DNA of 64,000 nt from a bacterium. GTDB taxonomy: Bacteria; UBA10199; 2-02-FULL-44-16; JAAZCA01. Shown here in pieces: positions 519 to 62,366 of the stretch. The stretch is from assembly GCA_963674695.2 (NCBI GenBank), contig CAXXGI010000002.1, positions 224,001-288,000 of the forward strand, given 5' to 3'. Numbering within the stretch: the first letter of the stretch is position 1; each line of letters begins with the position of its first letter. The translations under genes and the position numbers were made by a program. Under the pieces are notes generated by a model that saw only the letters and a program-made list of their open reading frames with translations, was not told the origin of the DNA and ran no database searches.

Positions 519-545
519 TATCGTCTTCCCCCCTGATTTGTTGCG
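519..545 (-). promoter_or_regulatory. Putative sigma-28-like promoter (CGCA-N18-CGATA)
   Basis: Reverse strand reads cgcaacaaatcaggggggaagacgataa; same spacing as five other sites in the window. Confidence 0.6.
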
Positions 546-860
546 TGCTTTTTTTCTTTTTATAACTAAGTGATATCATTGTGTTCTTTCTAAATTGCCG
601 GGGGATGTGGAGAAGACCCCTTCTCCCGTGAAACGGGAAAAGAGCTTGAATCGAGCGGTAGGGGGGGCGTATACTTCCCCCTATCGTGATTACTTTCCTC
701 ATTTCGCAGCTTCCTCGTCTCACCCCCCGCGATCGCAAGGGGCTCTGGTTCATCATCGACTTCTGAGTTTTCTCCTCATCCATTTTGATGCGGGCGTGCG
801 TCTTGTGCGCGCCTGAAAACCTGCACGTGCAATGCGCGCGTGTATGCAGAGGAGAAAACG

Positions 861-1304
861 ATGACCGATCACATACGAATGAATGTCATTTCCGCCAACG
901 AAACGATGCCGCCGGAAGAAGCGACGCTTCCCGGTGAAGAGGTCTTTCGCGATCACGGCGATGTGTATGGGCCGGATGGAGAGACCGACGGTGGCGTCGA
1001 TCGCGGCGGTTCGCGGCGCGGTTCCGAATATGACGATTCCTCTGACGGCGGATGCACCTGGGAGGATGGCGGTGAATTTTTGGGCGCGCTCCCGCGCACG
1101 GATCTGAGTGCGCGTCGGTTTGCCGCAACCTTTCCGGGATCGAGTCGATGCGGTCCGCAGGATTATCCCCTTCCCGAGCCGAATCCGAATGCCCCGGCAC
1201 CCTCGGGCAATCAGGACGGATACGGCGTTCCCAGCAATGATCCGACATCACCCTGGCGGCGCGGTTCGATGAATGATGCCAAGCCTCCGAAGACGCTCGT
1301 CTAA
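861..1304 (+). CDS. Hypothetical acidic Pro/Gly-rich, probably disordered protein
   Basis: ORF with GGAG RBS before ATG 861; low complexity; directly upstream of the protease gene. Confidence 0.5.
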   Translation: MTDHIRMNVISANETMPPEEATLPGEEVFRDHGDVYGPDGETDGGVDRGGSRRGSEYDDSSDGGCTWEDGGEFLGALPRTDLSARRFAATFPGSSRCGPQDYPLPEPNPNAPAPSGNQDGYGVPSNDPTSPWRRGSMNDAKPPKTLV

Positions 1305-1399
1305 CGCGCATACGGTCGATGGAGAGTCTTACTCACCGGACCGCAATGCGCTGCGCTGTTGGCAACGTGGGCGGTCCTCGCAGGAGAAAGGACCGAACC

Positions 1400-2881
1400 A
1401 TGACGATGACCACCGAAGGAAGCAATGGAGCACAAGGATTGGCCGCATGGGATGAGGGCTTTCCGCGCCTGCCCGATGACGGCGTGCCGCATCCGAACGA
1501 GGGGGAGTGGGCGCCAGCTCCTGAGACAAAACGGAAAGATTCGGAGCGAGGACGCGAAGCCGATCGGAATGCAGACTGGTACGAGACCAACGGTTCCGGC
1601 TGGGATGCCACGGGTGGGCGCGACGGCGACTTCGGCTTTCGCAAGCTCGTCGCGCGCGCGACGACCGGTTCCGCACAACGCTTCAGAAACCGGCGGAGTC
1701 AGAAGCCGGGATCATTGCCATCGATGAGCATTCCGTATCGTTTTCGCGGAAGTCGCTTCAACCTCGACGTGATCGATCGCGGCGGCATGCCGCGGCGCTT
1801 CTTCTTCGGCTCGGTCGACGAACTCGATCGGGATCGAAAGAAGGCGATCGCCATGGTCGCTCCGGCGGTGCCGCAGGTGTTGGTGAGGGGGACGAACGGT
1901 CAGGAGTGGTCCGGCAGCTCCACGATTCTCAATCCGGATGATGTGGCGCGGTATCTGCCGCACCTGAAACTCAAGCCGGGGCAGTACGTCGTGCACACCA
2001 ACCACCACGTCGCCAGCGGTGCCAAGCGCATCATCCTGGCGACCGCTGACGGCCAGCAGGAGTTGGAGGCGAAGGTCGTACGCGCGCCCAACGGTGCATC
2101 GCTGCTCGACGAACGCGATGATACCGCCCTCCTGATCGTCACGAGTCCCACGCCGCTTCCGACCGCGCGCATCGGCGAGGCCGATACCCTCGAGATGGGC
2201 GACACGGTCTTCACCGCTGGTTACCCGCTGGGTCTGCCGCGCATCGCGGTCACCACAGGGATCGTTTCACAGCCCGCGCAGCTCACCGGCGGTGGTCGAC
2301 CCGACATCCAGTCGGACGCAGCGATCAACCCGGGCAACTCGGGCGGGCCGCTCTTCACGCGCGACGGCATCGTCGTGGGGACGAATACCTATACCTTTCA
2401 GGGTGCCAACGACATGAGCTTTGTTATCCCGATCACGCATCAGCTCGCCACACTCGCTGAGATCTGGGAGAGGGGATATGTCGAGCGCGGATCGCTGGGC
2501 ATCGCCTTTGCTCCCTTCGGTCGCTTCGATCGAAAGGCGCCGGGATTGCCGACGAACGTCACGGGCGCAACGATCGATGCGGTCGATGCGAAATCGATGG
2601 CCGCGAAGGCGGGGCTCAAGCGCGGTGATCTGGTCAGTGCCATTCGGGTGCTCGACAACGGTATCGTCGTTCGTCGCATCGCGCTCAATTATGCCAGCCC
2701 GCATCACGGCACGCGGGTTGCGGCCGCCATCGCATCGCTCAAACCGGGGCAGCAGGTGGAGCTGATCTGCTATCGGCGCAAGATGGATTTGGGGTCGGTT
2801 TCCTATGAAGCCGATCAGGTACGCATGAATGTCGTGCAGGATCAGCCCCCGAAAGAGGATCGTGCGCGCGCGGTTGCATAA
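1400..2881 (+). CDS. HtrA/DegP-like S1C serine protease with PDZ domain and long polar N-terminal extension
   Basis: TNHHV (His), DTALL (Asp), DAAINPGNSGGPL (Ser) motifs; C-terminal PDZ-like AAKAGLKRGDLV; purine-rich RBS before ATG 1400. Confidence 0.9.
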   Translation: MTMTTEGSNGAQGLAAWDEGFPRLPDDGVPHPNEGEWAPAPETKRKDSERGREADRNADWYETNGSGWDATGGRDGDFGFRKLVARATTGSAQRFRNRRSQKPGSLPSMSIPYRFRGSRFNLDVIDRGGMPRRFFFGSVDELDRDRKKAIAMVAPAVPQVLVRGTNGQEWSGSSTILNPDDVARYLPHLKLKPGQYVVHTNHHVASGAKRIILATADGQQELEAKVVRAPNGASLLDERDDTALLIVTSPTPLPTARIGEADTLEMGDTVFTAGYPLGLPRIAVTTGIVSQPAQLTGGGRPDIQSDAAINPGNSGGPLFTRDGIVVGTNTYTFQGANDMSFVIPITHQLATLAEIWERGYVERGSLGIAFAPFGRFDRKAPGLPTNVTGATIDAVDAKSMAAKAGLKRGDLVSAIRVLDNGIVVRRIALNYASPHHGTRVAAAIASLKPGQQVELICYRRKMDLGSVSYEADQVRMNVVQDQPPKEDRARAVA

Positions 2882-2889
2882 GCGCGATA

Positions 2890-3279
2890 TCAGAGATCTC
2901 TCTTGCGAAAGGCCAGCGGGAGCAGTTCGTCGAGGCGCGCGACCTGTATTTTCCCGCGCGTGTTGGCCATGATGACTTCGAGCTTCACGCTGAATTCGGC
3001 CAGCGCCTGACGACAGATACCGCACGGCGGACAGGGCTCTTTGGTGGCCGCCACAATCGCGATGCGCCGAAAGGAGCGATGCCCCTCCGAGACGGCCTTG
3101 TAGAGCGCAGTGCGCTCCGCACAGCAGGTGGCGCCATAGCTCGCATTTTCAACGTTGCACCCGGTGAAGACCGTACCGTCGCGGGTTTCGAGTGCCGCCC
3201 CCACCTTGAACTTCGAATAGGGCGCATACGCGCCCTTTCTCGCCGCCGCCGCTTTTGTGATCAGACGTTTGGTATCCAT
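2890..3279 (-). CDS. cdd: Cytidine deaminase
   Basis: AYAPYSKFKVGAAL, GCNVENASY, CAER and PCGICRQ motifs. Confidence 0.95.
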   Translation of the reverse strand: MDTKRLITKAAAARKGAYAPYSKFKVGAALETRDGTVFTGCNVENASYGATCCAERTALYKAVSEGHRSFRRIAIVAATKEPCPPCGICRQALAEFSVKLEVIMANTRGKIQVARLDELLPLAFRKRDL

Positions 3280-3404
3280 AGCCCGAATCCTAGCACAATT
3301 GACAGCGAACGACATCCCCGATTGCCGCCATTATAATGATAGCCGTCACTCTGCCCTCCCTCATCTTCAAGAAGTCGGTTTTGTACAAACGATGGGAACA
3401 CTTT

Positions 3405-3647
3405 CCGCCTCGCCCGATGGGCAAGCCTCGCATGTGCGCCTCGCGGAACGAGCCGTTTTGGCCTGCGAAGAGCTGTCGGTTGAGATCGAAGATCTCAATT
3501 CCGAATGATGTCTGAGCCCGCCATAATCTAATGTGCCTTTCATCCTGCGGCGGGCGAGTTCACGAGGAAAGACGGATCGAGTCAGACGCCAAAACGTGCG
3601 AGTGGAGCGGAAGCGCACATGCGAGGCTTGCCCATCGGACGAGGCGG
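3405..3647. repeat. Family-B structured element, copy 1 (~175-nt core closed by 35-bp inverted repeat)
   Basis: Arms 3405-3439 and 3613-3647 pair at 34/35; core matches the reverse complement of 47514-47693. Confidence 0.85.
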
Positions 3648-3762
3648 CACTTGGCCTGCTCGTCGGTGGAATGGTATTGGCTCCCCCGGATGACCCGGAT
3701 TAATTGTTGTCTGGAATCGAGCGATGCGATAGGAGTTTTAGACCCACTTCAAGGAGGTTTGT

Positions 3763-5298: not shown

Positions 5299-5307
5299 AG
5301 GAGCATC

Positions 5308-6684: not shown

Positions 6685-6693
6685 GTTTTATTG

Positions 6694-6774
6694 TTTTGTC
6701 ATTCCCGCGGGGGAGGCGGGAATCTCGATTGTCACAGCACATCGAGATCCCCGCGTTCGCGGGGATGACAAAAA
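6694..6774. repeat. REP-like inverted doublet (GTCATTCCCGC...GCGGGAATC type)
   Basis: Palindromic pair between convergent genes; same family at 7970, 22620, 26971, 45527, 52591, 55516, 62767. Confidence 0.85.
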
Positions 6775-8040: not shown

Positions 8041-8044
8041 CCGT

Positions 8045-20219: not shown

Positions 20220-20246
20220 CGCAACTTTTCTCCCTAATCGGCGATA
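20220..20246 (+). promoter_or_regulatory. Putative sigma-28-like promoter (CGCA-N18-CGATA)
   Basis: cgcaacttttctccctaatcggcgataa, 27 nt upstream of ATG 20274. Confidence 0.6.
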
Positions 20247-20273: not shown

Positions 20274-22163
20274 ATGCGCCTGTTAGGACCACATCTGCTC
20301 GGCATCGGTCTGCCCGATGGGCTTTCGGGTTCGACCGCGGCGATGGAGCTGAATACGGCACTCAATGCGGTCGTAGCGGAATCGATCGATTCCACCGGGA
20401 TCGATACCTATGTGCCGCCGCAGGAGGATCGACAGGGGCTTTTTGCCGTGACCGATCACGTGCCGTTGAAACCGGTCGTTCATGTCGCGCATGTGCACGA
20501 TGGTAGCGAGGCGGTCGTGACCGTGAACGGGCAGGTCGTACCGACGGTCGCGCAGACGGCGGAAGTTGTCGTCATCGAGGACCCGGAATACGACTACAAG
20601 GCGCTGAACGAAGCTCCGCTCTACGGTGCCTATGATTATTCGAGCAATCCCGTCGAGGGGACGCTCGATCGACCGGTATTTCTGGGTTCGGATGAAGAGG
20701 GGGCCGTTCGCTTTCTGATCGAGGGCGAGATCCTGCGCGACATCCCTGCACGGGGCGGGATCGTCCTGGCCTTCTCGCCGGACGAGAACTCCGACCGGGT
20801 GCGGCCATTCTTTGCCGACGGTCGTCCGGTTGGACTCGACACAGGCGAGCCGCTTCTCATTCGATCTGAAAACGAACCCGACATCGTCTATCGCAACGGT
20901 AAACTCTGGATGCCTTCCTTTGGGCGCGCGCGCATGGATCTGTTGCTCGCGCATTCGGACGGTTGCATCGAGGCGATTCGCCGACGATCGATGAACGAAG
21001 ATGACCTGCGTTTCCAGCGCAACGAAGAGACCGGAACCTTTACCTTTTCGAGCGGGGACGGGCCGATGTTCGATCAGACCGGATATCTGGAGGGATTTCG
21101 GACGGCGGGATATCTTATGGATCCGATCGCACAATCGGAATCCCATTCCTTCTTTCGGTTGAACGATCGTGTCGTAGCAGCCGATGCCGATCGCGGTTGG
21201 CGGATCGAACAGGATCCTAAACGGTGGAGGCGGACGGGCTTCGTTCAAGATGAGGATGAAATTCCTCGCGTTATCACGCGCGGTGGCGAAGCGGCAGTCA
21301 TCTTCGAAGAGCTCTCCGACGGCGATCTGATCGTCGGTCGTTCGGTTGCAGGCGGTCTGCATCCGGCCCGCGCCGAGGGGTGGCGGTTTTTTCGTGGAAT
21401 GAACGATGGACGTGTGCGCATGCTCTCGAAGCGCCAGGTGCGTGCGCGGTTTCGTTCGATAGTTCAAGAGGGTATGGCGTCCGAGTTCGAACGACTGCTC
21501 GAACCCGCGGCCGAGGTGTGGTGGGAGGGGACGATTGCGTCATCCGCAACTGACGGTGAAGATCTGCATCTGCTTCGATTGCGAAACGGGACGTCAAAAC
21601 ATCGCATTGCGGTTCATCTCTCCGCCGGCGATGCCGCATCTACGATGATGATCGCCGGCGTCGAGGTCCTCTTCCGAACGCCTACGGCCGATGAAATACT
21701 GGCGGCGTTCGCGGTGCAGCCGTGGCGATTGCTGCGACGCTTGGCTCTGGTGACCGTGGCGCCGGACATGGAGATCGATCTGAAGGATATGGATGACGAT
21801 TTCGATGCCGCGCGGTGGTACGAGGGTCGAAAGATGCTCGAACTCTTTCCGATCTTCGACGGTGCCCCCCTGGGCAAGGTGGGTGAGATGCAGCGACTGC
21901 CTCGCCTCATCGGGCACGAGCTGGGGCATGCGGTGGATGAAGGGCGTGCGCTGCATCGCCGACTCCTGGCCATGGCCATGACGCTCGACGGCGTGGCGCT
22001 CGATCGCTATCTGCTCAAACATTTTCCGGATGCCCATCACGAGCGTGCGCTGGCCGAGCGCATCGCCGATCTCGTCTCGATTGCGCGCGAGGATCATGAC
22101 GGTCTCATCGCGGCAGCGCCGCACACGGCCGACTTCATCGCGTGGCTGATAAATCGCTCGTGA
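20274..22163 (+). CDS. Orphan protein with C-terminal HExxH zincin-like motif
   Basis: 629-aa ORF, AAGGAG RBS; GHELGHAVD followed by a downstream Glu (ALAERIAD). Confidence 0.7.
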   Translation: MRLLGPHLLGIGLPDGLSGSTAAMELNTALNAVVAESIDSTGIDTYVPPQEDRQGLFAVTDHVPLKPVVHVAHVHDGSEAVVTVNGQVVPTVAQTAEVVVIEDPEYDYKALNEAPLYGAYDYSSNPVEGTLDRPVFLGSDEEGAVRFLIEGEILRDIPARGGIVLAFSPDENSDRVRPFFADGRPVGLDTGEPLLIRSENEPDIVYRNGKLWMPSFGRARMDLLLAHSDGCIEAIRRRSMNEDDLRFQRNEETGTFTFSSGDGPMFDQTGYLEGFRTAGYLMDPIAQSESHSFFRLNDRVVAADADRGWRIEQDPKRWRRTGFVQDEDEIPRVITRGGEAAVIFEELSDGDLIVGRSVAGGLHPARAEGWRFFRGMNDGRVRMLSKRQVRARFRSIVQEGMASEFERLLEPAAEVWWEGTIASSATDGEDLHLLRLRNGTSKHRIAVHLSAGDAASTMMIAGVEVLFRTPTADEILAAFAVQPWRLLRRLALVTVAPDMEIDLKDMDDDFDAARWYEGRKMLELFPIFDGAPLGKVGEMQRLPRLIGHELGHAVDEGRALHRRLLAMAMTLDGVALDRYLLKHFPDAHHERALAERIADLVSIAREDHDGLIAAAPHTADFIAWLINRS

Positions 22164-25681: not shown

Positions 25682-25708
25682 TATCGTCCTTTCTCCAAAA
25701 AAGGTGCG
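25682..25708 (-). promoter_or_regulatory. Putative sigma-28-like promoter (CGCA-N18-CGATA)
   Basis: Reverse strand reads cgcaccttttttggagaaaggacgata; a second near-site (GCA-N19-CGATA) lies at 25750-25776. Confidence 0.6.
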
Positions 25709-25946
25709 TGTTTTTTTTGCATCCAAAAAAAAACCGCTGTCATAAGGGGTATCGGCGTTTACCGCGAAAATGATGCTCGGAATTTCTATATGGCGAAACG
25801 ATTTCGGGTCTGCCCCGATGGGTCCGGCCCGGACCGCTCCCGAAAGGCGGTTATTTCACACTGATTTTAAAGGGTTACACTCTGCATGCTTGCCATCGGG
25901 TGGGCGGGCATGCTACGCCCCGCTTTCCCGGAAAGGAAGGATCCCC

Positions 25947-26948
25947 ATGCGTTTCCCGCTCTCGCAGACGATGACCGTTTTTCGCTACATGCGCCGGCAA
26001 AAACAGGCCGGAAAGACCCGATTTCCGCTCGTGCTCATGCTCGAGCCGCTCTTTGCGTGCAACCTGGCCTGTTCGGGCTGTGGGCGCATCCGTGAATATC
26101 GCGACGACATGAAGCGGATGATGCCGCTTGAAGAGTGCCTCAAGGCCGTGGACGACTGCGGCGCGCCGGTGGTCTCCATCTGCGGCGGCGAGCCGCTCCT
26201 CTACCCGGAGCTTCCGGAACTCATCGAGGCCATCATCGCCCGTGGTCGCGTGGTCTATCTCTGCACGAACGGCCAGACGCTGGAGAAATCGGTTCAGAAG
26301 CTTGTGCCCCACAAGCGCTTCAACATCAATGTGCACCTCGACGGGATGGCAAAGACCCACGACATCATCGTCGAGCGTGAGGGCGCCTTTGCCAAGGCTC
26401 TCGACGGCATGCGCGCGGCGAAAAAGGCGGGTTTCACCGTCTGCACCAACACCACCGTCTATGCCCAGACCGATGTCGAGGAGGTCAAGGAGCTCATTCG
26501 GTTCCTCGAGGATGAGGGGATCGACGGCATCCTGCTCTCGCCTGGCTTCGACTATGGCGATGTGGAGGATCAGTCGGTCTTTCTGACGCGCGAAACGGTG
26601 AAGGAGAAATTCTCACAGTTGCGCGAGGCGGGGCGCTCAAAAAAGGTCTGGGCCACGCCGCTCTTCCTCGACTACCTCGCGGGAAAACGCGATTTCGCCT
26701 GCACGCCCTGGGGGAACGTCACCTATAATCTGCGCGGCTGGAAGGCGCCCTGTTATCTCGTCACCGATGAGCACCGCACCGAATGGTCCGACTTCATCGA
26801 TGGTGTCGATTGGGGCAAGTACGGCCCGGGCAACGACGAGCGCTGCACCAACTGCATGGCCCACTGCGGGGTCGAACCGACCATCGCGCTCACCGCGCAA
26901 GACTCCATCAAAGATGCGCTGACCATGGCCCGCTGGACGCTGTTTTGA
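25947..26948 (+). CDS. hpnH: Adenosyl-hopene transferase (radical SAM)
   Basis: FPLVLMLEPLFACNLACSGCG, GGEPL, CTPWG, PCYL and CTNCMAHCG motifs. Confidence 0.92.
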   Translation: MRFPLSQTMTVFRYMRRQKQAGKTRFPLVLMLEPLFACNLACSGCGRIREYRDDMKRMMPLEECLKAVDDCGAPVVSICGGEPLLYPELPELIEAIIARGRVVYLCTNGQTLEKSVQKLVPHKRFNINVHLDGMAKTHDIIVEREGAFAKALDGMRAAKKAGFTVCTNTTVYAQTDVEEVKELIRFLEDEGIDGILLSPGFDYGDVEDQSVFLTRETVKEKFSQLREAGRSKKVWATPLFLDYLAGKRDFACTPWGNVTYNLRGWKAPCYLVTDEHRTEWSDFIDGVDWGKYGPGNDERCTNCMAHCGVEPTIALTAQDSIKDALTMARWTLF

Positions 26949-29715: not shown

Positions 29716-29753
29716 ACTCTAGTGTTGAGGGGGATACGCCACAGGAGCATATG

Positions 29754-31397
29754 ATGGGCAACGTCAAACGCAGACTGGTGAAAGATTTCTACCCGCCGTG
29801 TGAACAGCTCGGCGAAAAAAAAGGAGAGCCCTTCGAGTGCGCCTGCAAGGTGCTCGTTCGCCAGTGCTTTGGCAAGAAGAAGAAGGGGCAGAAGAACGTT
29901 TCGCTCGATGGGGCATCTCGATCCTTTTCGATCGAGTCGGGCATTCCCTGTGCCGAGGCGGCTCCGGGTCTCTTTAACGGAGTCAGCCGGTGGCAGGATA
30001 TTAAAACGAATGTGCGCATCGACGGCAAGCACGTCCTGACGAAGGCATGCAAGGCGAAGGTGAAGACGAAGGAACGAAAGAAGAAGAAAAAGGCGCCCGC
30101 GGCCGAAGGGGTCGCTTCCAAGGAAAAACCGTCCGAGGAGCGGAAACCGCAAAAGAGCAAACCACGGGATGTCGCGCCCGATCTCGATAGAGAAGAAGGG
30201 GGGCCGGCGCAAGAGACGATCCTCGACACGAATTTGTCCGTGCCGAAATCACGAGGCGTTCTCTTCTCCCCGCTCGCACGCGAGCTGTGGCAAGAATACG
30301 CCCTTGCGCATCTCACACAGCTGCATGCGAATCACTCTATTCGCCCGAAGGCGGTCGGTACGATGGGCGCCGCACAGGATCGTGATCAGAATCATGCCAT
30401 CGGCAGTGCACGGGTCGGTGTGCAGGCCTTCTCACTCTGGAACGATCACTTTTCCTCTTCGGCGGACGTCGCCTTCGCGGCCGGAAAGACCGCTGCGGGC
30501 TTTCGGCGCACGAACGATCCGGGGACGTTTCGCCTCGATGCTTCCGGCGACGGCACCTTCATGGAGGTCGACGAGCTCTCATTCGAGGTCATCTGGGCGG
30601 ACGAGCTGCGCAAGAAAGAGCATGTCTATGCGGTGCACGCCCGCGCGGGTGCGGCCGACGATATCGGCAAGGGCATCGACTATGGCCTCTCGCACAGCGC
30701 CGGCTGGTGGGGCGGCACGAAGCTCATCGGCTCCGGCGTCGGTGCGGGTATAGCACCTGAATTCATCCTGCATGACGGTGCGCTGAAGATCGGGGGCTCG
30801 GTCGGCCTGATCGACGAGGAGAGCGGATCGGCAGAGACGAAGAAGGACGGGAGCGCCGTGCAGGGCTCGGCGCACATCCAGGGGGATGCGATCGCAGGTC
30901 AGCTGGACCTGGGCCTTGCCTTCCACGGATCGGGCGGCTTCGCCGGTACGGGCGCCGGGGCCGTGAAGGGACAACAGCTCTATACGGTCGACGCCGGGAT
31001 CGGCGGCAATTGGAGAGACACCGTGCATCGCGTGACGGCCAATGTTCGCTATCATCGCTTCGAGTCGAAGGGGGATCTGGACTTCAACCAATACGCCGGT
31101 TCAGTCGGCTATCGCGTTCTCTACGGGGGCTACTCGTTCATCTTCCACGGGACGGCGCTCGCCTCGTTCGTCCGGCGCGATGAAGGCGCAACGGAGCGGG
31201 TCGTCTCATCGGACGGGAAGACGACCGTGCCGATGCTGGACAACACTGGCATGGAGGTGACGCTTCGACCCGGGATCATGCTCAGGGGGATCGGTATCAG
31301 ACCCGAGATCTCGCTGATGGGGATGGGTCATGACGGAATGGATTTTGCCTGGTCCGGTATGCTCACCGTTGGCATTGGGCCGGAGGTCTTTGAATAA
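29754..31397 (+). CDS. Type-II Cys/Lys-rich N-domain fused to a predicted beta-barrel-like C-domain
   Basis: Begins MGNVKRRLVKDFYPPCEQLGEK; Lys-rich linker; C-terminal Gly/aromatic alternating strands (VTANVRYHRF, YAGSVGYRVLY, WSGMLTVGIG); no Sec signal. Confidence 0.8.
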   Translation: MGNVKRRLVKDFYPPCEQLGEKKGEPFECACKVLVRQCFGKKKKGQKNVSLDGASRSFSIESGIPCAEAAPGLFNGVSRWQDIKTNVRIDGKHVLTKACKAKVKTKERKKKKKAPAAEGVASKEKPSEERKPQKSKPRDVAPDLDREEGGPAQETILDTNLSVPKSRGVLFSPLARELWQEYALAHLTQLHANHSIRPKAVGTMGAAQDRDQNHAIGSARVGVQAFSLWNDHFSSSADVAFAAGKTAAGFRRTNDPGTFRLDASGDGTFMEVDELSFEVIWADELRKKEHVYAVHARAGAADDIGKGIDYGLSHSAGWWGGTKLIGSGVGAGIAPEFILHDGALKIGGSVGLIDEESGSAETKKDGSAVQGSAHIQGDAIAGQLDLGLAFHGSGGFAGTGAGAVKGQQLYTVDAGIGGNWRDTVHRVTANVRYHRFESKGDLDFNQYAGSVGYRVLYGGYSFIFHGTALASFVRRDEGATERVVSSDGKTTVPMLDNTGMEVTLRPGIMLRGIGIRPEISLMGMGHDGMDFAWSGMLTVGIGPEVFE

Positions 31398-31410
31398 AGA
31401 GGACACGCAT

Positions 31411-32394
31411 ATGGGAAACGATATCACCAAACCCCGCCAGGCGCGGGCGGCATGCAAAGAGACGTTCACAAAGGGGAGCGCAAAACGCCGCCTCTGTTTG
31501 AAAAACGTCACGGCCTGTTCGAAGGCGAACAAGGCCGACGCGGGCGACGATGCGGCCCAAGATGAGTATGTGGCTTGTCTAAACGGTGTCGTGACGGCAG
31601 CGGAGAAGGGGGCGGGCCTCTCCCGCAACAATGCGCCATCGCGTCCGGTGAAAAAGAAGAAAAAGCCGAGACGGGGAGCGGATGCCGATCGTTCACGCAA
31701 GCGGAAGGGACGGTCTCATCGCGCGCGTCAGCAAAAGACGCCGCGCGCATCGGAGGGGAGTTTCATCTCGCGCTGGACCAGTGGCGGGCTGAACGTGGAG
31801 GAGGCCCTCCTCGATATCAAGGAGAGCCGGCACTATGCCCGTTATAGCAACCGCGACGATGAGTCGCTCGTCTGTGCTCTCGAGATCACGCCGAGCCGGA
31901 AGCTCAACGTCGACTGGTGTGCGCAATACGATCAGGAGAAAAAGGAGCTCAAGGCCAAGACGACTTCACCGGCGGTGCTGCAATACGTCAAGTCGTTCAG
32001 TATCTTCTTCTATGGGCGGTACGGTGACCGACTCCAATCGATCTTCACGAAAGAGGAGGCCGAGCTCAAAGAGGAAGGCCTCATGACGCCGTGGGCGCTG
32101 GCCAAGCGCTATCGCGTGCGCGGGCGCTGCTATGGTTCCGGCCCCTTCAGCGGGGCGACGCTGGGCAACATTCAGGACTGGCTCGATCCAAAGGCCTGTC
32201 CAGAAGCCGAGGTGCGCTTCTCCGTCGGAGGCTTGAGCGTCACGGCGGGTTGGACGGTCGGTGAAAAGGATTCCGAGTTGGCCGAGCTCGTCGGCATCGA
32301 GAGCGATCGCAAGACCCCCGATATCGTTTTGGAAGGGGAGATGATTCCGACGATCACGCTCGTCGATGTCGAATTGGAACTGGAAGGATTGTAA
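31411..32394 (+). CDS. Type-I (PRQAR-Cys) paralogue 1
   Basis: Begins MGNDITKPRQARAAC...CLKNVTACSKANKADA; GAGGA RBS. Confidence 0.85.
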   Translation: MGNDITKPRQARAACKETFTKGSAKRRLCLKNVTACSKANKADAGDDAAQDEYVACLNGVVTAAEKGAGLSRNNAPSRPVKKKKKPRRGADADRSRKRKGRSHRARQQKTPRASEGSFISRWTSGGLNVEEALLDIKESRHYARYSNRDDESLVCALEITPSRKLNVDWCAQYDQEKKELKAKTTSPAVLQYVKSFSIFFYGRYGDRLQSIFTKEEAELKEEGLMTPWALAKRYRVRGRCYGSGPFSGATLGNIQDWLDPKACPEAEVRFSVGGLSVTAGWTVGEKDSELAELVGIESDRKTPDIVLEGEMIPTITLVDVELELEGL

Positions 32395-32420: not shown

Positions 32421-33422
32421 ATGGCAAGCAAAATCAACAACCCCAGACAGGCGCGGGTGGCGTGTCGGGAAAAGTTCGAAAAGGGGAGCGACGAACGCCT
32501 GCTCTGCTTGAAAAACGTCAAGGCCTGCACGAAGGCGAACAAGGCCGACGCGAGCGAGTTCGTCTTTGCAAGCGATGCGGGAAAAGAGGTCACCAGGCAG
32601 AGCTTCAAAGGCTGTCTGCGCTATGCCCCGACGGCGGCACGCAAGGGCATGTCGCTGGTGAAGGATCAGGGCAGCACGCCGCGCGCGGAGAAGAAGCCCT
32701 CGAGGAAGCGGCGTGGGCCGAAGCGCAGGTCCGCTCCTTCGGATGGGGGTCGCACATCGGTGTCGACACTTCGGCCGGAGAAGGTGGAATTTGCATTCAA
32801 CAATAAAAGTAAAGTTCGCGCACTCTATCGCGACAGCGCTCATGGCGACATGGTCTGCTCATTTCGTCTCCTGGGCGATGGAGGTGTGAAGGGATATAAA
32901 TCGCTTAAGGGGGCAAGTCCTCGCTTGGATAGCTGTCGCCCTCACGGTAAAGGAAAAGGGGATGCACCGATAGCGCTGGCCAAGCGCGAGCGTGGTGCGC
33001 TTACGCGATCGGCCCGGAAATTTATTGGAGAGTCAGCCGAGGCGATGGAGAAGAATTTCGGTCTCTTCGATAGATCGCTTGGTGCGCGTTCGATCGATTC
33101 CTTTTGGAAACAGGCGAAGCGCTATGGAGTCAAGGGGAGGAAGTCGGGCGAAGATGTATGGACCAAGATCCGTTCCCAGCAGGAGCTCAAGGGACGCCTG
33201 GTGGGGAAGCGCCCGGAGGTCGGACATGTTCGTATGATGCTTGGCGGAACCGAGGCCATCCTAGGGTGGGGGGCCATGTTCTCGAAGGAAGCCGGAAAGA
33301 ACCTCGCGGAAGGCACATATCCCGGGTGCCTGGATGTGGTCCTGACCGGTTCGAATATGCCGATAACGGTGTTGGTCGATCCCGAAGAGCTCTGCTGTGA
33401 TAAGGTAAAGTGGATTGACTGA
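32421..33422 (+). CDS. Type-I (PRQAR-Cys) paralogue 2
   Basis: Begins MASKINNPRQARVAC...CLKNVKACTKANKADA; GGAGG RBS. Confidence 0.85.
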   Translation: MASKINNPRQARVACREKFEKGSDERLLCLKNVKACTKANKADASEFVFASDAGKEVTRQSFKGCLRYAPTAARKGMSLVKDQGSTPRAEKKPSRKRRGPKRRSAPSDGGRTSVSTLRPEKVEFAFNNKSKVRALYRDSAHGDMVCSFRLLGDGGVKGYKSLKGASPRLDSCRPHGKGKGDAPIALAKRERGALTRSARKFIGESAEAMEKNFGLFDRSLGARSIDSFWKQAKRYGVKGRKSGEDVWTKIRSQQELKGRLVGKRPEVGHVRMMLGGTEAILGWGAMFSKEAGKNLAEGTYPGCLDVVLTGSNMPITVLVDPEELCCDKVKWID

Positions 33423-36222: not shown

Positions 36223-36249
36223 CGCAACATTCTGTGTTATTCGCCGATA
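36223..36249 (+). promoter_or_regulatory. Putative sigma-28-like promoter with canonical GCCGATAA -10
   Basis: cgcaacattctgtgttattcgccgataa upstream of 36285. Confidence 0.7.
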
Positions 36250-37682: not shown

Positions 37683-38216
37683 ATGGGAAATGAGATTACG
37701 ACACCGCGCCAGGCGCGTATCCAGTGTCGGCGCATGTTCGATGGCGATGAGGAGAAGCGCTGTCTGGACAACGTCAAGGTCTGCACGAAGAAGTACAAGG
37801 AAAGTGCAAAGGATGCGGATACCAAAGATCGGTACGAGGCCTGCCTGACCGATGCGGTGAAGGCCGTTGAGGAGGGCCGGTCGCGGCAGCGCCCATCGAG
37901 CACAACGGAAAAGCCGAAGAAGAAGGCTCCAAAACAAGATCAGACACAAAAAACAGACACCGCCGATACATCGAAGGGCAGGCGTCAGCGGATCGAAGAA
38001 TGCCTGCGCGCATGCGTCCGATGGGTTGAGCAGGCCGGGAAGAAAAACGAATGGGAAAAAGACTGTCAGTATTATTGCCCAATCCACGCCTCCGATGCGG
38101 AGGGGACGGCCACATTCATCGAATGCCTGGAGAATGATACGGCTTCGAGGGCGTACCGAAATACCATGAGTACGTGCAGTCAGAACGCACGCAAGGCGGA
38201 GCGTCGGCAGAAATAG
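37683..38216 (+). CDS. Type-I (PRQAR-Cys) paralogue 4, short, with a different Cys-rich C-domain
   Basis: Begins MGNEITTPRQARIQC...CLDNVKVC; GGAGGAG RBS. Confidence 0.85.
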   Translation: MGNEITTPRQARIQCRRMFDGDEEKRCLDNVKVCTKKYKESAKDADTKDRYEACLTDAVKAVEEGRSRQRPSSTTEKPKKKAPKQDQTQKTDTADTSKGRRQRIEECLRACVRWVEQAGKKNEWEKDCQYYCPIHASDAEGTATFIECLENDTASRAYRNTMSTCSQNARKAERRQK

Positions 38217-56125: not shown

Positions 56126-56152
56126 GAAAACCTCCTTCAAGGCGCGATGGGT

Positions 56153-57301: not shown

Positions 57302-57352
57302 GGGCCGATCATGGGCGAAGGAATCGACAACGTCAACTCGATCGTGTCTCCA

Positions 57353-59935
57353 TCAGAAGGCGTACGCCCCCATCATCGCTGCGCCTCCGGTCACGAAGGG
57401 CAGCATGCCGTCCATGACGCCTTCGGGCATGGCGCTCGCCTCGATCGGCATTGGTTCGTGCAGTATCATCGCGCTGTCGGAACCGGCGACCCACGCTTCC
57501 ACGGCGGCATCGGTTGTCACCTGCTCCACGACGAGTGGTTCGCGGGCGATGAAGGGTTGCGCCCATGTGCGTGCCTGCGTTCCGCCGTTTGTCACGGGCG
57601 GTGCGCCGTTCGGCGATGGCTCGGATGATCCCGTCGGCGGTGCGCCGTTTGATCCATTGCCTCCACCGCCGTTGCGGGGGGGATCTCCATCGAATAGCGG
57701 CGGGCGTGGCTGTGTGCCGACCTCCTGCGTCACTTGATTCATCAACGCGATGAAGGAGAAGGGGAGCATGCCCATGGCCAGGTCTTCGGCGTTCTCTCCA
57801 TTTCGCTTCACCTCAAAGAACGTCGCGCGAATGGGGTCCTCGAGCAGCAGCCATGCATTGATCGCCGTGATCGCCCGCTGCCGGAGGATGGGGGGATAGT
57901 AGGCCAGCGGGGAGTTGAGCTGGGTCAATTGGTGCATTGCGCGAGCGACATCGTATCCCTGATGCCGATCGACGTGGCCATCCCGATTGGTCCAGGGCGT
58001 TTGGCTCGCTTCGAGCGGAAGGCGTGCGTCGGTTCCCACGCCGAGTGCGGTCTGAAGAAAATCGATAAAGCTATCGGGAATGCCGCGATGGTGCTGCGCA
58101 TGCGATGGCTTGCCGTTTCGTTTCCAGAAGGCGCTTTTGAGTTCACTCGAAATTCCCTGCCAGATCGCCAGGAGTCGTTCGGCGCGTGCGTCGACGATAT
58201 GGAACGGGGCCTGCGTGAGAAGGGAATGCCGTTCGCGCAGGCGATGATAGACCAGCGCGCGCTGTTCAACGTCTTTGAGTTGGCGCAGGCGCGATCGGCG
58301 AAAGAGGCGGATGAACTCGAACGGGAGCGCGCCGTCGGCCATCTCTTCGGCGACATCGACGAAGGCTTGGCGGTCATCCACTTCGAGCGTACTCCAGAGG
58401 TGGATGATCTTGTCCGCGGCATACTCGATTGTCTTCGGTGTCACCCATTTTCCCGTGTTGGTGCGTGCATCGGTTTGTGCCGAGGTGTGTGCCCGCGTTT
58501 CAATTTCATAGAGCGATTTTCCAAAGATGTTTTGTGCGAGCTGATCCTGAACGGTCACCGGATCGGGGGCGATGACATATTCGGCTGCCCAGACCTTGGT
58601 CGATTCGGCCAGCAGGTCGAACATGTCTTCATTCTTGAGATACTTCTCGGAGAACCGCTCGATAAAGCCGAAGGGCAGCTTTCCCTCCGTGGGGCGTTCA
58701 TCGTCGATGACCATCACGTATTGATCGAGCGGAGCTTGTTTCTTCCACTGTTCGACGGCGAAGAAACTCATGTAGCGTTGCACCAGATGGGGGAGCGCGA
58801 TGAAGCGTTCGCCGCGACGCTCATAGCGGTCGCTGTGAATGAGTTTGGCCAGCTGCTTGAAGGCGACATTCGCACGGGGATTGATGCTGGCCAGGGTGTT
58901 GTGAATATCCTCATCCGTCGGTCGGAAGGCGGCCATTTGTGTGTCCGAGGAGGATCGCCCAGGTCGAATCAGGATGGTCGTCGAGGAAGAGGGGTTCGTC
59001 GTCGGCAGGGCCGCATTTTGGGCGGCCTCTTCAAGCTCTGGATCCTTCGGCGGTTGTTGGCCGCGCAGCCATCCGAGCGTGAAGACATATTTCAATGTGC
59101 GGCCGAGGCTCGGCAGCGTGCGGCCAAAGAAATTTCGTGTGGCGCGGCTGAAGGTGCTGATGCCTTGGTCAAAGTTCTCAGCGCCCCTTCCTGCAGCCCT
59201 GGCGTGATTGCCTGCGGTGCTGATGGCCTTGATGACCTTGACGATGATCCAGACGATGAGCCCCAGTCCGAATCCAAAGCCGCCGCCGGTGCCGAAGCTC
59301 CACCACGGGTATTTTTTCTTCTCCTCCTCCTTCACTTTCTCACAGAGCAGAGACAGGTCGGCCAGGTCCTGCGCCCGCTTTCGGTCGAAGGTACAGGTAT
59401 TGGCTTCGTCGCATTCGTACATGATGTTGCAGCTATGCTGCATGGATTGGTGCACGGCCAGAATGTTCTGTTCCAGGTTCTGACAGTGCGATTGCATCGG
59501 TTCGATGGAGGTGCTGATGTTTTTCGAAAAGGCCTTCATCGCCGTTCGATAGCGTTTTCGTGCCGTCAGCGGCAGCGATTGCGCGATGATCTTTTCCGCA
59601 TCGACTTCATGGAGGTGGCATTCAGCATGGGGGAGCAAATCGGCAATATCGCTGGCCAGCGTTCCACAGCCGCTGGTGCTGTACCAACTTAAATAGGCAT
59701 CGCTCAGTGCGGTGATCCCTGGGACGGACGGCTTTTCATCGCTGCCCGGATAGACCAGGCGGGTCATCTCGGTGTCGTGTCCGTTGGAGATAACGGGCCA
59801 GTCAGCCGGGTTGCTCGCGCAGAACTCGTCGTCGCGACAGCTCTGCAGGCTCTCCGAGCAGCAGATGATCGGCTTGAGTCGTTCCAGGAAATCCTTGCCG
59901 ATCGTGAGGGAAATGAGGGGGCGGGATTCACTCAT
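57353..59935 (-). CDS. Large orphan single-TM protein with Cys-rich N-domain and four helical repeats
   Basis: AGGAGG RBS; TM segment FGFGLGLIVWIIVKVI; four W...G.LPF.FI repeats; Gly/Pro linker and hydrophobic tail. Confidence 0.8.
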   Translation of the reverse strand: MSESRPLISLTIGKDFLERLKPIICCSESLQSCRDDEFCASNPADWPVISNGHDTEMTRLVYPGSDEKPSVPGITALSDAYLSWYSTSGCGTLASDIADLLPHAECHLHEVDAEKIIAQSLPLTARKRYRTAMKAFSKNISTSIEPMQSHCQNLEQNILAVHQSMQHSCNIMYECDEANTCTFDRKRAQDLADLSLLCEKVKEEEKKKYPWWSFGTGGGFGFGLGLIVWIIVKVIKAISTAGNHARAAGRGAENFDQGISTFSRATRNFFGRTLPSLGRTLKYVFTLGWLRGQQPPKDPELEEAAQNAALPTTNPSSSTTILIRPGRSSSDTQMAAFRPTDEDIHNTLASINPRANVAFKQLAKLIHSDRYERRGERFIALPHLVQRYMSFFAVEQWKKQAPLDQYVMVIDDERPTEGKLPFGFIERFSEKYLKNEDMFDLLAESTKVWAAEYVIAPDPVTVQDQLAQNIFGKSLYEIETRAHTSAQTDARTNTGKWVTPKTIEYAADKIIHLWSTLEVDDRQAFVDVAEEMADGALPFEFIRLFRRSRLRQLKDVEQRALVYHRLRERHSLLTQAPFHIVDARAERLLAIWQGISSELKSAFWKRNGKPSHAQHHRGIPDSFIDFLQTALGVGTDARLPLEASQTPWTNRDGHVDRHQGYDVARAMHQLTQLNSPLAYYPPILRQRAITAINAWLLLEDPIRATFFEVKRNGENAEDLAMGMLPFSFIALMNQVTQEVGTQPRPPLFDGDPPRNGGGGNGSNGAPPTGSSEPSPNGAPPVTNGGTQARTWAQPFIAREPLVVEQVTTDAAVEAWVAGSDSAMILHEPMPIEASAMPEGVMDGMLPFVTGGAAMMGAYAF

Positions 59936-60252
59936 GACGCCCTCCTTTCGAGGTGAGGCACCGAGGGATATGCACAAGATGGATTGGATAGAGGGGGGAA
60001 TGGCAGGGTGTAGAAATCACCCGTGCCGGATTGCTGAATGTGAATACAGATGGGAGCGACCGCGAGGGAGGTGCCTCCGGGAGGCTGAGCCGTCATACGC
60101 GGAGGAGGTGGTAGTGGCGGGAGAGAAGAGGCCTCGCCTGGGGGAAGCGCGGTCATGCGGGGCGTCATGATCTTGTGGTCGGATGAAGGCGGAGAGGGTC
60201 TCCGGAACACGTGAACGGCGCCAACAGCATGTGTCTTCGTCCCGACAGACAT
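59932..60252 (-). CDS. Possible Pro-rich small protein coupled to the large orphan
   Basis: ATG after AGGGGG; stop overlaps the downstream start (ATGA); low complexity. Confidence 0.35.
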   Translation of the reverse strand: MSVGTKTHAVGAVHVFRRPSPPSSDHKIMTPRMTALPPGEASSLPPLPPPPRMTAQPPGGTSLAVAPICIHIQQSGTGDFYTLPFPPLSNPSCAYPSVPHLERRAS

Positions 60253-60335
60253 GGCGGCCCCCCTGGGCATTTGTGTGGTGTGTGCGACTCCATTAAGCGG
60301 AGACAGTGATGCGTGATCAGCGTTCGCCTTTGCGT

Positions 60336-60351
60336 TGCATGCAGAATGCCA
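60336..60351 (-). promoter_or_regulatory. Possible sigma-54 promoter
   Basis: Reverse strand TGGCAttctgcaTGCA gives GG-N10-GC spacing; AT-rich DNA upstream. Confidence 0.35.
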
Positions 60352-60541
60352 CTTCAGATGGGCATGGACAAGAATGGAACTGGTGGGTGAAAAATGAATA
60401 CCCATTTGCAAATTGCATGCTAAATTGAATGGTTATGGGGGGGTTGTCGTATAATGGTTTGAAATTGCACGATAATCTTTTTTGACGTGGTCGCAGGGGG
60501 GGTGAAAATTCTTGAAAGAAAAAGACAATTTTCCAGAAAAA

Positions 60542-60952
60542 TCACTCCGTTGGCGTGGCTTCGGGGGGGGAGGTGATCTTTCGCAGGGTGATGATGAAGC
60601 CATCGCGGCGATCCGTTCGCGTCTGGAGGTCGAAGCGGTTTGCGGCCAGGCTCGTGATGTCGGCCATGAGCGCATCGGTCGTTCCGGCGAAGCGTCCGCT
60701 GTAGACGATCTGGTTCTGGCTCTCGCGAAGGGGGATGAACTGCCGCATCGGTTTGAGTTGCTTGAGGCTGCCCGTCAGGGCGTCGATGTCAGTGTAATGG
60801 CGAGTTCCCAGCAGGACGAGCGTAAACGGAATGGCCGAGGTCGAAACCGTTGCCGAGGTGGAGACGATCGGTTTGGTCGGCGTCTGTGCGGAAACTGGAG
60901 TTGCGACGATCAGGCAGATAGCACAGGCGATGGCAAACGTGAGGGATTTCAT
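60542..60952 (-). CDS. Secreted hypothetical protein
   Basis: Sec signal ending VSA; GAGG RBS. Confidence 0.7.
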   Translation of the reverse strand: MKSLTFAIACAICLIVATPVSAQTPTKPIVSTSATVSTSAIPFTLVLLGTRHYTDIDALTGSLKQLKPMRQFIPLRESQNQIVYSGRFAGTTDALMADITSLAANRFDLQTRTDRRDGFIITLRKITSPPEATPTE

Positions 60953-60960
60953 GGATACCT

Positions 60961-61188
60961 CTAGGAGACGACGATGGAAAAGGATTCGATGCGCTCCACG
61001 TCGATCATCGCGCGATCCTCATCGTCGACAATGATGATGTTGCCGTTGTCCACATCGACCGATTCGAGCGTGCCGGAATAGGCGATGCCGAAGGCGATCA
61101 CGTCGACGCGCTTGCCCTTCGCATCGATGAGCGCCTGCATCAGCGCATCTTCTTCAATGGAGAAATCGAGATCGATGAGTTCTGTCAT
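60961..61188 (-). CDS. Small acidic protein, possible Sm/LSm-like fold
   Basis: GKRVDV..YSGTLESVD..NIII pattern. Confidence 0.6.
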   Translation of the reverse strand: MTELIDLDFSIEEDALMQALIDAKGKRVDVIAFGIAYSGTLESVDVDNGNIIIVDDEDRAMIDVERIESFSIVVS

Positions 61189-61260
61189 GCGTTGGATTCC
61201 TAGTCGAAGCGTGATACCAGGTCAAGCGCGCACCTGGCGCGGGGGTTTGTGCGTGCGCGA

Positions 61261-62280
61261 TCACGTCATGATCGCTCGCAGCTCCTCTTTGAGCGGCATC
61301 GTGCAGAGTTCGCGGACCGCCTCTTTCGGTTTGAGCCCTTCATAGAGAATGCGATACATGACGGCGCAGATGGGCGTGTTGATCTGACGATGCACGGCAA
61401 GCCGATGCAGGGCCGCCGTCGTGGTGATGCCCTCGGCGATCATCTGCATGCCGGATTGGATCTCCTCCAGCGCTTTTCCCTGCCCCAGTTCCAGGCCGAC
61501 GCGATGGTTGCGCGAGAGTTTCCCCGTGCAGGTGAGCACCAGATCGCCGATTCCAGAGAGTCCCATAAAGGTGAGGGGGTTGGCTCCCAGCGCGCGACCG
61601 ATCTTGGTCATCTCGTAGAGTCCGCGTGTGATGATCGCCGCACGCGCGTTGTGGCCAAACCCGAGTCCATCGGAGAGGCCCGCCGCGATGGCGATGACGT
61701 TCTTTACCGCTCCGCCCACCTCGACGCCGATCACATCGTCGTGCGTAAAGGTGAGGAAGGCGTCGGTGCGAAATGCCTCCTGAACGGTGCGACAGGTCGT
61801 CGCATCGTCTCCGGCGATGACCACCGACGTCGGAAGGCCCTCGGCCACCTCCTGGGCGAAGCTCGGCCCCGACAGGACGCAGAGGTGCGCATGGTCCAGG
61901 GCGGGGAGGGACTGGTGCAGGACCTCGCTCATGAGCGTGAATCCCTTTTCCTCGATCCCCTTCGTGCAGCTGACGATGATGGCCCTTCGGTCGAGGTGGC
62001 GCGCACCCTCCTGCCAGACGCGGCGCAGGGCGATCGAGGGGACGACCGAGATGATGAGCTCGCGCCCGGCCAGGGCATCGGAGAGCTTCGTCGTCGCCCG
62101 AATCGATTCAGGCAGCTCGATTGCGGAGAGGTAGAGCGGGTTGCGATGGGTGGTCTCGATGCCCTCGGCCACCTCCGGCTCGAAGGCCCAGAGCAGGACA
62201 TCGTGCCCTTTGTCCGCGAGCAGGCGTGCCAGGGCCGTACCCCACGATCCGGCACCGATGATGGCGATTTTGTGTGGCAT
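61261..62280 (-). CDS. gpsA: NAD(P)H-dependent glycerol-3-phosphate dehydrogenase
   Basis: GAGSWGTALA, KGIE, SGPSFA, GGAVKNVIAIA and GDLVLTC..SRN motifs. Confidence 0.97.
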   Translation of the reverse strand: MPHKIAIIGAGSWGTALARLLADKGHDVLLWAFEPEVAEGIETTHRNPLYLSAIELPESIRATTKLSDALAGRELIISVVPSIALRRVWQEGARHLDRRAIIVSCTKGIEEKGFTLMSEVLHQSLPALDHAHLCVLSGPSFAQEVAEGLPTSVVIAGDDATTCRTVQEAFRTDAFLTFTHDDVIGVEVGGAVKNVIAIAAGLSDGLGFGHNARAAIITRGLYEMTKIGRALGANPLTFMGLSGIGDLVLTCTGKLSRNHRVGLELGQGKALEEIQSGMQMIAEGITTTAALHRLAVHRQINTPICAVMYRILYEGLKPKEAVRELCTMPLKEELRAIMT

Positions 62281-62339
62281 GGCGGCGATAGTATGTATAA
62301 TTAGCTAAAATTAAAAGGGTTTTTTTAATGTGCGAAGTG

Positions 62340-62366
62340 CGCAACTTTTTTCTGTCCGTGCCGATA
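62340..62366 (+). promoter_or_regulatory. Putative sigma-28-like promoter upstream of PilZ
   Basis: cgcaacttttttctgtccgtgccgatag, CGCA-N18-CGATA spacing. Confidence 0.65.

Follow-up and report, generated by a model that had tools for sequence, protein, structure and literature searches.

The window analysed here is a 64-kb stretch of DNA (positions 224001-288000 of contig C2 of the genome that we call G000, assembly GCA_963674695.2) from a bacterium of the GTDB lineage UBA10199. It carries six copies of a spaced two-block motif with the core GCAAC-N16-CGATA, each a short distance upstream of a gene. The genome comprises 3.03 Mb in 3 contigs and is rated 100% complete. Judged by its sequence features, the motif is a promoter class. 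We consider it probable (about 0.75), from the sequence and by analogy with known systems, that these are the promoters of a secretion-linked factor of the sigma-28 type, which would be made with the secretion machine and would then turn on late genes.

Specifically, a factor of the sigma-28 (FliA/WhiG) type would read the sequence GCAAC-TTTT-N12-(gc)CGATA(a) with an A-rich tract upstream. This sigma would be made together with a type III secretion machine and would drive roughly 140-190 promoters, so that approximately 6-8% of genes would be served as first genes. It would then switch on a late gene class, as FliA does for the late flagellar genes. We infer that the sigma binds to the motif and that transcription starts just downstream of it.

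The motif in the genome and in the window

The exact pattern GCAAC-N16-CGATA occurs 101 times in G000, while nine other spacings occur 4-26 times; the optimum at N16 between the two 5-mers is sharp. By our own gene calls (2433 genes covering 88.5% of the genome, with approximately 11.5% non-coding), 86 of the 101 exact sites are non-coding. From non-coding sites we built a weight matrix of 44 nt, which finds 190 sites of at least 12 bits in the genome, versus 16 in the reversed (not complemented) genome. At a threshold of at least 14 bits, 157 of 176 sites are non-coding. Of the 12-bit set, 188 sites could be assigned to a gene, and in 134 of these cases the gene starts on the same strand 0-100 nt further on. 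There are 153 sites of at least 20 bits, among which we observed 8 back-to-back minus/plus pairs within 400 nt.

At the 101 exact sites, where CGATA itself is fixed by the search, the two preceding positions favour G (52) and then C (43) or G (35), and the following position favours A (54). The flanks are thus similar to GCCGATAA, as in a sigma-28-type -10 element. The -35 block is (a/g)C-GCAAC and is not of the TAAA type: set against the TCTAAAG of the Pseudomonas aeruginosa fliC promoter, its C at -35 and two A's align, and no more. The block starts 21 nt ahead of CGATA, and this register is the same as that of the P. aeruginosa fliC promoter and of the TTAAG-N16-CCGATA promoters of Bdellovibrio. 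An earlier note on this DNA had proposed that the motif has the geometry of sigma-28 promoters and had suggested a genome-wide scan for enrichment over background; the geometry holds, and so does the enrichment. We call the motif a promoter class because its short blocks are separated by a fixed gap, the spacer between them is unconserved, the orientation is strict and an A-tract lies upstream.

The motif is also found throughout the phylum. In a set of 93 species genomes (one class, 24 families), the exact motif is enriched in all 93, with 12-115 matches in each genome versus 0-11 for the reversed pattern. A homologue of the window's PilZ gene is present in all but one of the 21 other genomes in the order, and in 16 of these 20 a site of 24-40 bits lies 44-105 nt upstream of the homologue. 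The motif upstream of PilZ is kept in 17 of 21 genomes, compared with 23 of 840 control windows. What we see across the phylum is a conserved promoter and a conserved sigma, together with a small conserved core of targets and a large, fast-changing set of unknown proteins.

Within the window, the looser pattern GCA-N18-CGATA, on which the earlier note was based, has 10 matches versus an expected 1.53 (standard deviation 1.24), and none of 100 dinucleotide-preserving shuffles reached 10. The six sites that the note had listed are all present at their fixed spacing, with spans given one base too long at four of the six. They share AAAAA, three further nucleotides, (a/g)C, GCAAC, TTTT, N12 and (g)(c)CGATA(a). 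From site to site, CGATA ends 89, 28, 55, 36, 36 and 53 nt ahead of the start codon, on the same strand throughout; the note had placed the sites 27-90 nt upstream in the same orientation, and the measured range is 28-89 nt in all six cases. The remaining four matches (16476, 38792, 53150 and 58072) fall in coding sequence, have no GCAAC core, T-run or upstream A-tract, and are at chance level. The list of window sites that score 6 bits or more by the weight matrix includes none of them. The sites and their target genes are as follows.

519..544, minus strand: promoter core GCAAC-N16-CGATA, 26.7 bits, with an A-tract immediately upstream on the minus strand
1..430, minus strand: 5' part of a target gene of 687 aa in full (MGSISC...), no Pfam family above cut-off; the gene runs past the window start to G000 C2:222367, and its start codon is the one 89 nt past CGATA
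20221..20246, plus strand: promoter core, 39.8 bits, the strongest of the window
20274..22163, plus strand: 629-aa target gene, no Pfam family
25682..25707, minus strand: promoter core with the GCACC variant of the -35 block, 35.7 bits
24449..25627, minus strand: 392-aa target gene (MGKVKK...), no Pfam family
25795..25820, plus strand: weak, doubtful site GAAAC...CGATG, 16.6 bits
29690..29715, plus strand: promoter core with the GCATC variant, 25.0 bits
29751..31397, plus strand: 548-aa target gene (MMGNVKR...), no Pfam family
36224..36249, plus strand: promoter core, 36.3 bits
36285..37664, plus strand: 459-aa target gene (MGNEINS...) with an N-terminal three-cysteine module, no Pfam family
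62341..62366, plus strand: promoter core, 26.8 bits
62419..62739, plus strand: 106-aa PilZ domain protein (PF07238, 58.1 bits), a conserved regulon member

The sigma factor and its secretion cluster

G000 has seven genes of the sigma-70 family: RpoD, an RpoH-like sigma, three sigmas of the extracytoplasmic function (ECF) type, a FliA/WhiG-like sigma of 289 aa (C3:8530-9399, outside the window) and a sigma of 910 aa. Of 41 relatives, 40 have the FliA/WhiG-like sigma, with 50-76% identity; the single genome in which it was missed is 78% complete. In two relatives, G023 (97% complete) and G038 (91%), RpoD and the FliA-like sigma are the only full-length matches to the sigma-70 family, and the motif has 87 matches versus 5 for the control in G023 and 50 versus 4 in G038. 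G017 (99% complete) has RpoD, RpoH-like and FliA-like sigmas only, and G009 (99% complete) has the same three at full length plus two short matches to region 4 only; the motif is present in both. Because these four genomes have kept the motif with such repertoires, the ECF and RpoH-like sigmas are not required for it. By this elimination and by analogy, the FliA/WhiG-like sigma is most likely the factor that reads the motif.

We also considered the 910-aa sigma (C3:147960-150692) as the reader and rejected it. It has clear orthologues in G016 and G018 only, with orthologue fragments in G001, G007 and G012, and a 32-bit site lies 47 nt before the start of its own gene, which makes it a target of the motif rather than its reader. 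In this protein (locus L075:960-3689), regions 2, 3 and 4 are C-terminal, behind approximately 640 residues that have no Pfam family and appear internally repetitive by eye. It may form the second tier of a sigma cascade.

The best NCBIfam match of the 289-aa sigma is FliA_WhiG (TIGR02479), which it covers from profile position 1 to 219 of 224 with 132.4-132.7 bits, below the curated cut-off of 189.6. The seven best distinct sequences in the Protein Data Bank are all WhiG or FliA (6pfv, 6pfj, 9wsf, 9wsm, 6pmi, 7lq4 and 1rp3); among these best matches of solved structure, 6pfv is WhiG, and 9wsf, 9wsm, 6pmi and 1rp3 are FliA. In a tree from a quick search, for which outgroups were thin and SigB/F and ECF sigmas were left out, 27 orthologues and the L070 sequence form one long-branch clade (SH-aLRT, the Shimodaira-Hasegawa-like approximate likelihood-ratio test, 98). 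This clade falls with 41 canonical FliA rows, apart from the RpoD, RpoH-like and 910-aa sigmas (97). In public annotation, these sigmas appear as "FliA" or "sigma-70 family".

The residues that contact the promoter are known from the open complex of P. aeruginosa sigma-28. There, the fliC promoter has TCTAAAG at -36..-30 and GCCGATAA at -15..-8, R97 contacts the extended -10 GC, D66 and Y76 hold the flipped -11 A, and base-specific reading of the -35 element falls to S224 and Q228 (PMC12784957, available text). We mapped these residues to the sigma of G000 by hand from the printed HMMER alignment to 9wsf, keeping the P. aeruginosa numbering, with the following result.

D66, holds the -11 A: D101 here, kept
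Y76, holds the -11 A: F111 here
R97, contacts the extended -10 GC: R132 here, kept
S224, -35 reader: S254 here, kept
Q228, -35 reader: R258 here
E223, R225 and V226, helix neighbours: K, W and T here

The segment that reads the -10 element, F(R/K)T(F/Y)xYYR(I/V)(K/R)G...GW(L/I/V)PR, is visible in 29 of 30 orthologue rows, the L025 row being another part of the frame. The region 4.2 helix of the G000 sigma is SKSWTSR and does not have the canonical form TESR[IV]SQ, which is found in 109 of 120 canonical FliA representatives. Across the class, 30 of 30 orthologues have the altered form LSKSW[TV][SC]RLH, as do 118 of 120 representatives of metagenome clusters. The exact motif is still enriched in genomes with the T/V and S/C variants of the helix, and there is no usable covariation of helix and motif. 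The split in the motif, which keeps the sigma-28 -10 element and changes the -35 element, parallels the split in the residues, where the -10 readers are kept and the -35 helix is changed; the changed helix fits GCAAC in place of a TAAA-type -35. The earlier note had predicted a sigma-28 variant with altered -35 recognition, to be sought by looking for fliA and its region 4.2 residues. Such a factor is present in the genome, and its helix is altered in the way that a changed -35 element would predict.

The gene for this sigma lies inside a type III secretion cluster of the injectisome type (G000 C3:4000-20400, locus L076). The gene order is chaperone-like, SctJ, 141-aa, sigma, 165-aa, FliG-like 354-aa, SctL/FliH, SctN/FliI, coiled-coil 171-aa, SctR, SctS and SctT. 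Going by size and position, we take the SctS assignment to be correct and the 171-aa gene to be SctO, and on the same grounds the order presumably resembles fliE-F-G-H-I-J. The 354-aa protein has weak similarity to FliG (E 1.3e-7), and the C-terminus of the 165-aa protein looks like that of a rod or adaptor protein. The order of sigma, 165-aa and 354-aa genes is kept in 28 of 29 loci from relatives.

Scores against family models favour Sct over Fli/Flh for the core export apparatus. The sole FHIPEP protein of G000 scores 793.7 bits against SctV (cut-off 692) versus 683 against FlhA (cut-off 772), and SctR scores 233 bits (cut-off 208.6) versus 196 against FliP (cut-off 217). SctJ and SctT also match their Sct models best, though below the cut-offs of these models (129.1 versus 161.95 and 141.5 versus 163.05, respectively), and SctN/FliI and SctL/FliH are ambiguous between the Sct and Fli models. 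No motif site of at least 12 bits is found in C3:1-32000, so the secretion machine's own genes stand outside the regulon. Because the genes of the secretion apparatus have no such promoter, the layout resembles the flagellar hierarchy.

G000 contains no flagellin, at 100% completeness, and no flagellar rod family. Across the phylum, FHIPEP is present in 91 of 93 genomes and flagellin in 11 of 93. A second FHIPEP copy, of 854-889 bits, is present in 10 of the 11 flagellin genomes, and the eleventh, G065, has fragments. In both flagellated genomes that we examined (G002 and G033), a second FliA, in which the helix is canonical, is encoded a few kb away from flagellar flhA, and both genomes also retain the SKSWTSR sigma. 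The loci of the second, canonical FliA are as follows.

G002 C1:20001-30000 (locus L133)
G033 C39:177001-187000 (locus L134)

None of eight flagellin genes (loci L127-L132, L135 and L136) has the GCAAC/CGATA motif above 12.0 bits. Six of the eight have the sequence AAGTT-N11-14-CCGT 83-112 nt upstream, a pattern that has a chance of 0.0014-0.002 per 250 nt and that we defined after inspecting the flagellin sequences. The -10 block of this pattern differs from GCCGATAA. A TAAAG-like -35 block is thus found with the canonical helix, and GCAAC with the altered one.

Alternative readings

The earlier note had read the six sites as a flagellar FliA regulon, expressed in a motile stage, whose orphan products would be exported through the flagellar apparatus. 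The sigma is indeed of the FliA type, PilZ proteins are FliA targets elsewhere, and the phylum does include the 11 genomes with flagellin. The absence of flagellin and rod-family proteins in G000 leaves the proposed motile stage without its machinery, however, and the proposed export route is contradicted by an export gate that scores as SctV above cut-off and as FlhA below it, with Sct models also best for SctR and SctJ, and by the position of the sigma gene in an injectisome-type cluster. In the flagellated relatives, the flagellin genes lack the motif and a separate canonical FliA exists, which argues against the flagellar reading there as well. We regard it as the least probable of the alternatives. 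That the motif is no promoter at all, being instead the operator of a DNA-binding regulator or a dispersed repeat, would need just a regulator conserved across the phylum. This is very improbable given a fixed 16-nt gap between two short blocks with an unconserved spacer, a strictly gene-facing placement in which most assigned sites fall within the last 100 nt before the start codon, an A-tract at the position of an UP element, and a -10 block identical to that of a known sigma class.

If the motif is a promoter, another sigma might read it. ECF promoters have an AAC-containing -35 block, a T-run and a -10 block starting with CG approximately 16 nt further on, and the AAC...CG geometry of the motif resembles this. 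G000 has its three ECF-type (group 4) sigma genes, one of which (C1:31327-31905) is downstream of a 29.5-bit site, possibly as the second gene of an operon. However, none of the three genes has a site in the 300 nt ahead of it, and a set of 140-190 promoters kept phylum-wide is unlike the usual ECF regulon, which is small and autoregulated. In addition, G017, G013, G040, G023 and G038 have no full-length ECF-type match (detected with PF04542 and TIGR02937), yet the motif is strongly enriched in all of them. An ECF reader is largely refuted by this phyletic pattern, and we give it next to no weight. We also think it improbable that the motif is read by the RpoH-like sigma (C3:481034-481954) or by RpoD itself. 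An RpoH-like sigma is present in most genomes, a regular-expression search found no classical sigma-32-type promoters in G000, and a 33.6-bit site lies inside a primase-like gene approximately 1.3 kb upstream of rpoD; E. coli has a heat-shock promoter at that position, inside the primase gene upstream of rpoD. Against this, G023 and G038 have the motif and no RpoH-like match, and no motif site is found at groES, at a DnaK-type gene or at lon. RpoD is standard (736.8 bits to the RpoD model), with nothing that points to a changed specificity, and CGATA with its preceding GC is a hallmark of sigma-28.

Two observations concern these housekeeping loci themselves. The site upstream of rpoD (G000 C2:623141-623184, plus strand) could feed transcription of rpoD from the alternative sigma. 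At groES (C2:206813 region), a promoter of the type TTGACT...TATATG is followed by an inverted repeat, which we take to be of the CIRCE kind; because of these two elements, heat-shock control in G000 may operate via a repressor.

Several points weigh against a secretion-linked sigma-28-type factor as the reader. The link between sigma and motif is made by elimination, by analogy and from residue changes, of which the residue changes were mapped by hand, and the sigma scores below the curated cut-off of the family to which we assign it. A search for anti-sigmas of the FlgM family gave no match in G000, although FlgM is small and divergent, so this is weak evidence. G093, a genome labelled as Myxococcota (locus L070), has a 40%-identical sigma with the same SKSWTSR helix and 12 exact motif matches versus 1 for the control. 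The T-run accompanies few of the 12, so that helix and motif are not obviously coupled in G093. The gene starts and the regulon list come from our own simple gene caller, and the upstream pattern of the flagellin genes was drawn from the same sequences in which it was counted. Support for the idea, discussed below, that the targets are cargo of the secretion machine is compositional and weaker, and of the three secretin-family genes of G000, none lies in the secretion cluster (C3:4-20 kb).

Target genes and related systems

To describe the targets, we defined the regulon as the 143 first genes that have a site scoring 20 bits or more within 300 nt and compared them with the other 2290 genes. 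The counts are as follows.

Protein starts with MG: 25 of 143 in the regulon, 112 of 2290 among the others
Three-cysteine module (C-x6-16-C-x5-8-C) in the first 60 residues: 17 of 143 in the regulon, 29 of 2290 among the others
Membrane-like segment: 18 of 143 in the regulon, 650 of 2290 among the others
At least 1000 aa: 17 of 143 in the regulon, 58 of 2290 among the others

The N-termini of regulon proteins have more Cys, Pro, Ser and Thr and less Lys, Arg, Ile and Val. Paralogue links of regulon members lead to other regulon members in 60 of 151 cases, versus 5.9% expected. The three-cysteine module often follows an MG start. A myristoylation-type explanation of the MG starts was considered and dropped, as the residues after the Gly have no consistent pattern by eye.

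Pfam searches of four sets of genes gave the following results.

Six strong-site window targets: 1 with a family (PilZ)
Twenty random regulon genes: 3 with a family (DnaJ+PilZ, subtilase, alpha-amylase/CBM48)
Five large regulon genes: 1 with a family (ABC1 kinase-like)
Twenty random non-regulon window genes, as control: 15 with a family (various)

Two of the five control genes without a Pfam family are directly downstream of regulon genes. The earlier note had described the targets as orphans plus PilZ; this description agrees with the six products downstream of the window sites, five of which have no Pfam family, the sixth being the PilZ domain protein, and with the random sample of the regulon. 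The targets are mostly fast-evolving, lineage-specific proteins without a known family, accompanied by the conserved PilZ protein and a few enzymes.

Some individual targets are described here in more detail. A search of the 21 other genomes of the order at E<=1e-8 gave no homologue of the 629-aa window protein, and the 459-aa protein has no usable match in the ESM Atlas. The 392-aa target is a paralogue of the gene at 29751 and of a gene at G000 C1:132762-133148. The gene at 29751 is closely followed by same-strand genes at 31390-32394 and 32421-33422, which may form an operon with it; the latter gene likewise has no Pfam family, nor does the gene at 37683-38216, the next after the 459-aa gene. 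The weak site at 25795 on the plus strand is 127 nt upstream of a radical SAM/DUF3463 gene (25947-26948) and forms a divergent pair with the core at 25682 on the minus strand. Elsewhere in the genome, C1:243804-280366 contains three consecutive giant genes (3209, 3761 and 3622 aa), which are mutual paralogues and each have a site of their own; for the 3209-aa protein, Pfam gave no family. A further site (C1:836840-836883, minus strand, 40.6 bits), among the strongest of all, is followed by no called gene for 400 nt but just by short open frames, with a tRNA-like stretch nearby. It may drive a small RNA or a small protein.

Many of the targets may be type III secretion substrates, a distinct possibility that we would stop short of calling probable. 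We infer it from the gene neighbourhood of the sigma and from the targets' few membrane segments, the composition of their N-termini and their fast turnover. A more specific scenario, which we offer as a doubtful one, is that the sigma is a sigma-28 paralogue that this uncultured phylum retained from the transition between flagellum and injectisome, integrated in the secretion operon and with its -35 recognition re-tuned apart from that of the flagellar FliA which some members possess. It would switch on approximately 150 fast-turnover genes for secreted effectors once the machine has been made, possibly via a FlgM-like secretion checkpoint.

Several known systems share parts of this arrangement. 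HrpL of plant pathogens, with its hrp-box, and BtrS-BtrA of Bordetella are cases in which an ECF-type sigma encoded with a type III secretion system marks effector genes by a promoter box, from which a list of the effectors can be drawn up. The system described here is like these in having an alternative sigma encoded with a type III secretion system and a recognisable box. It differs in that its sigma is of the flagellar (group 3) type and in that secretion of the targets is here a prediction.

Class 3 promoters of flagellar FliA, such as that of P. aeruginosa fliC (PMC12784957, available text), have the same register as the motif, the same (GC)CGATA(A) -10 element and the same start of the -35 block. 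The sigma belongs to the same family by best match, its readers of the extended -10 GC and of the -11 position are kept, and its gene likewise lies among genes of a type III export machine. Unlike flagellar FliA, it goes with a GCAAC -35 element, has R in place of Q228 together with three neighbouring changes, and scores below the curated family cut-off. It occurs here with no flagellum and no FlgM family match, and with approximately 150 promoters of unknown proteins. In Bdellovibrio bacteriovorus, FliA accounts for 92 of 140 mapped attack-phase promoters, with the consensus TTAAG-N16-CCGATA (available text of PMC3627812). The two systems are alike in having about a hundred promoters, many of them before uncharacterised proteins, and in the geometry of 5-mer, N16 and CCGATA. 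However, Bdellovibrio is flagellated, its -35 element is the canonical TTAAG and the same FliA runs its flagellar genes, whereas the sigma described here is a distinct paralogue that stands beside a separate canonical FliA where a flagellum exists.

For sigma-28 of Chlamydia trachomatis, chromatin immunoprecipitation sequencing gave two targets, hctB and tsp, and the promoter is near the E. coli consensus (PMC12282069, as far as its available text goes). That sigma also belongs to a non-flagellated bacterium with type III secretion, in which it serves late developmental genes, but the -35 element is altered in the present case and the regulon is roughly 70 times larger. Early-branching non-flagellar type III secretion systems have been described in Myxococcales and Chlamydiales, and those of the Myxococcales lack FliE and FliG (PMC3459982); the word 'sigma' has 0 occurrences in the available text of that paper. 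The present cluster is like these early-branching systems in its injectisome type, in having no secretin within it and in its flagellum-like gene order, and unlike the myxococcal ones in its weak FliG-like gene. In a literature search (supplements not covered), we found no description of a GCAAC/CGATA promoter or of a sigma-28 paralogue in an injectisome cluster.

The motif is a simple tag by which a large group of unknown, co-regulated genes can be recognised in a phylum that is known from metagenome assemblies only. The tagged genes make up approximately 6-8% of each genome, and the tag works in every species genome of the set. In this system, the -35 helix and the -35 element have both changed naturally, and the flagellated members, which have both sigmas, serve as an internal control; the insulation of paralogous sigma factors from one another can thus be studied in a clean test case. 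A flagellar-type sigma in the operon of a non-flagellar type III secretion system is also relevant to the question of how the flagellum gave rise to the injectisome and its regulation. If the targets are indeed effectors, the GCAAC-N16-CGATA box would be a ready-made effector catalogue for 93 species, and it would point to a host- or prey-dependent life for the whole phylum.

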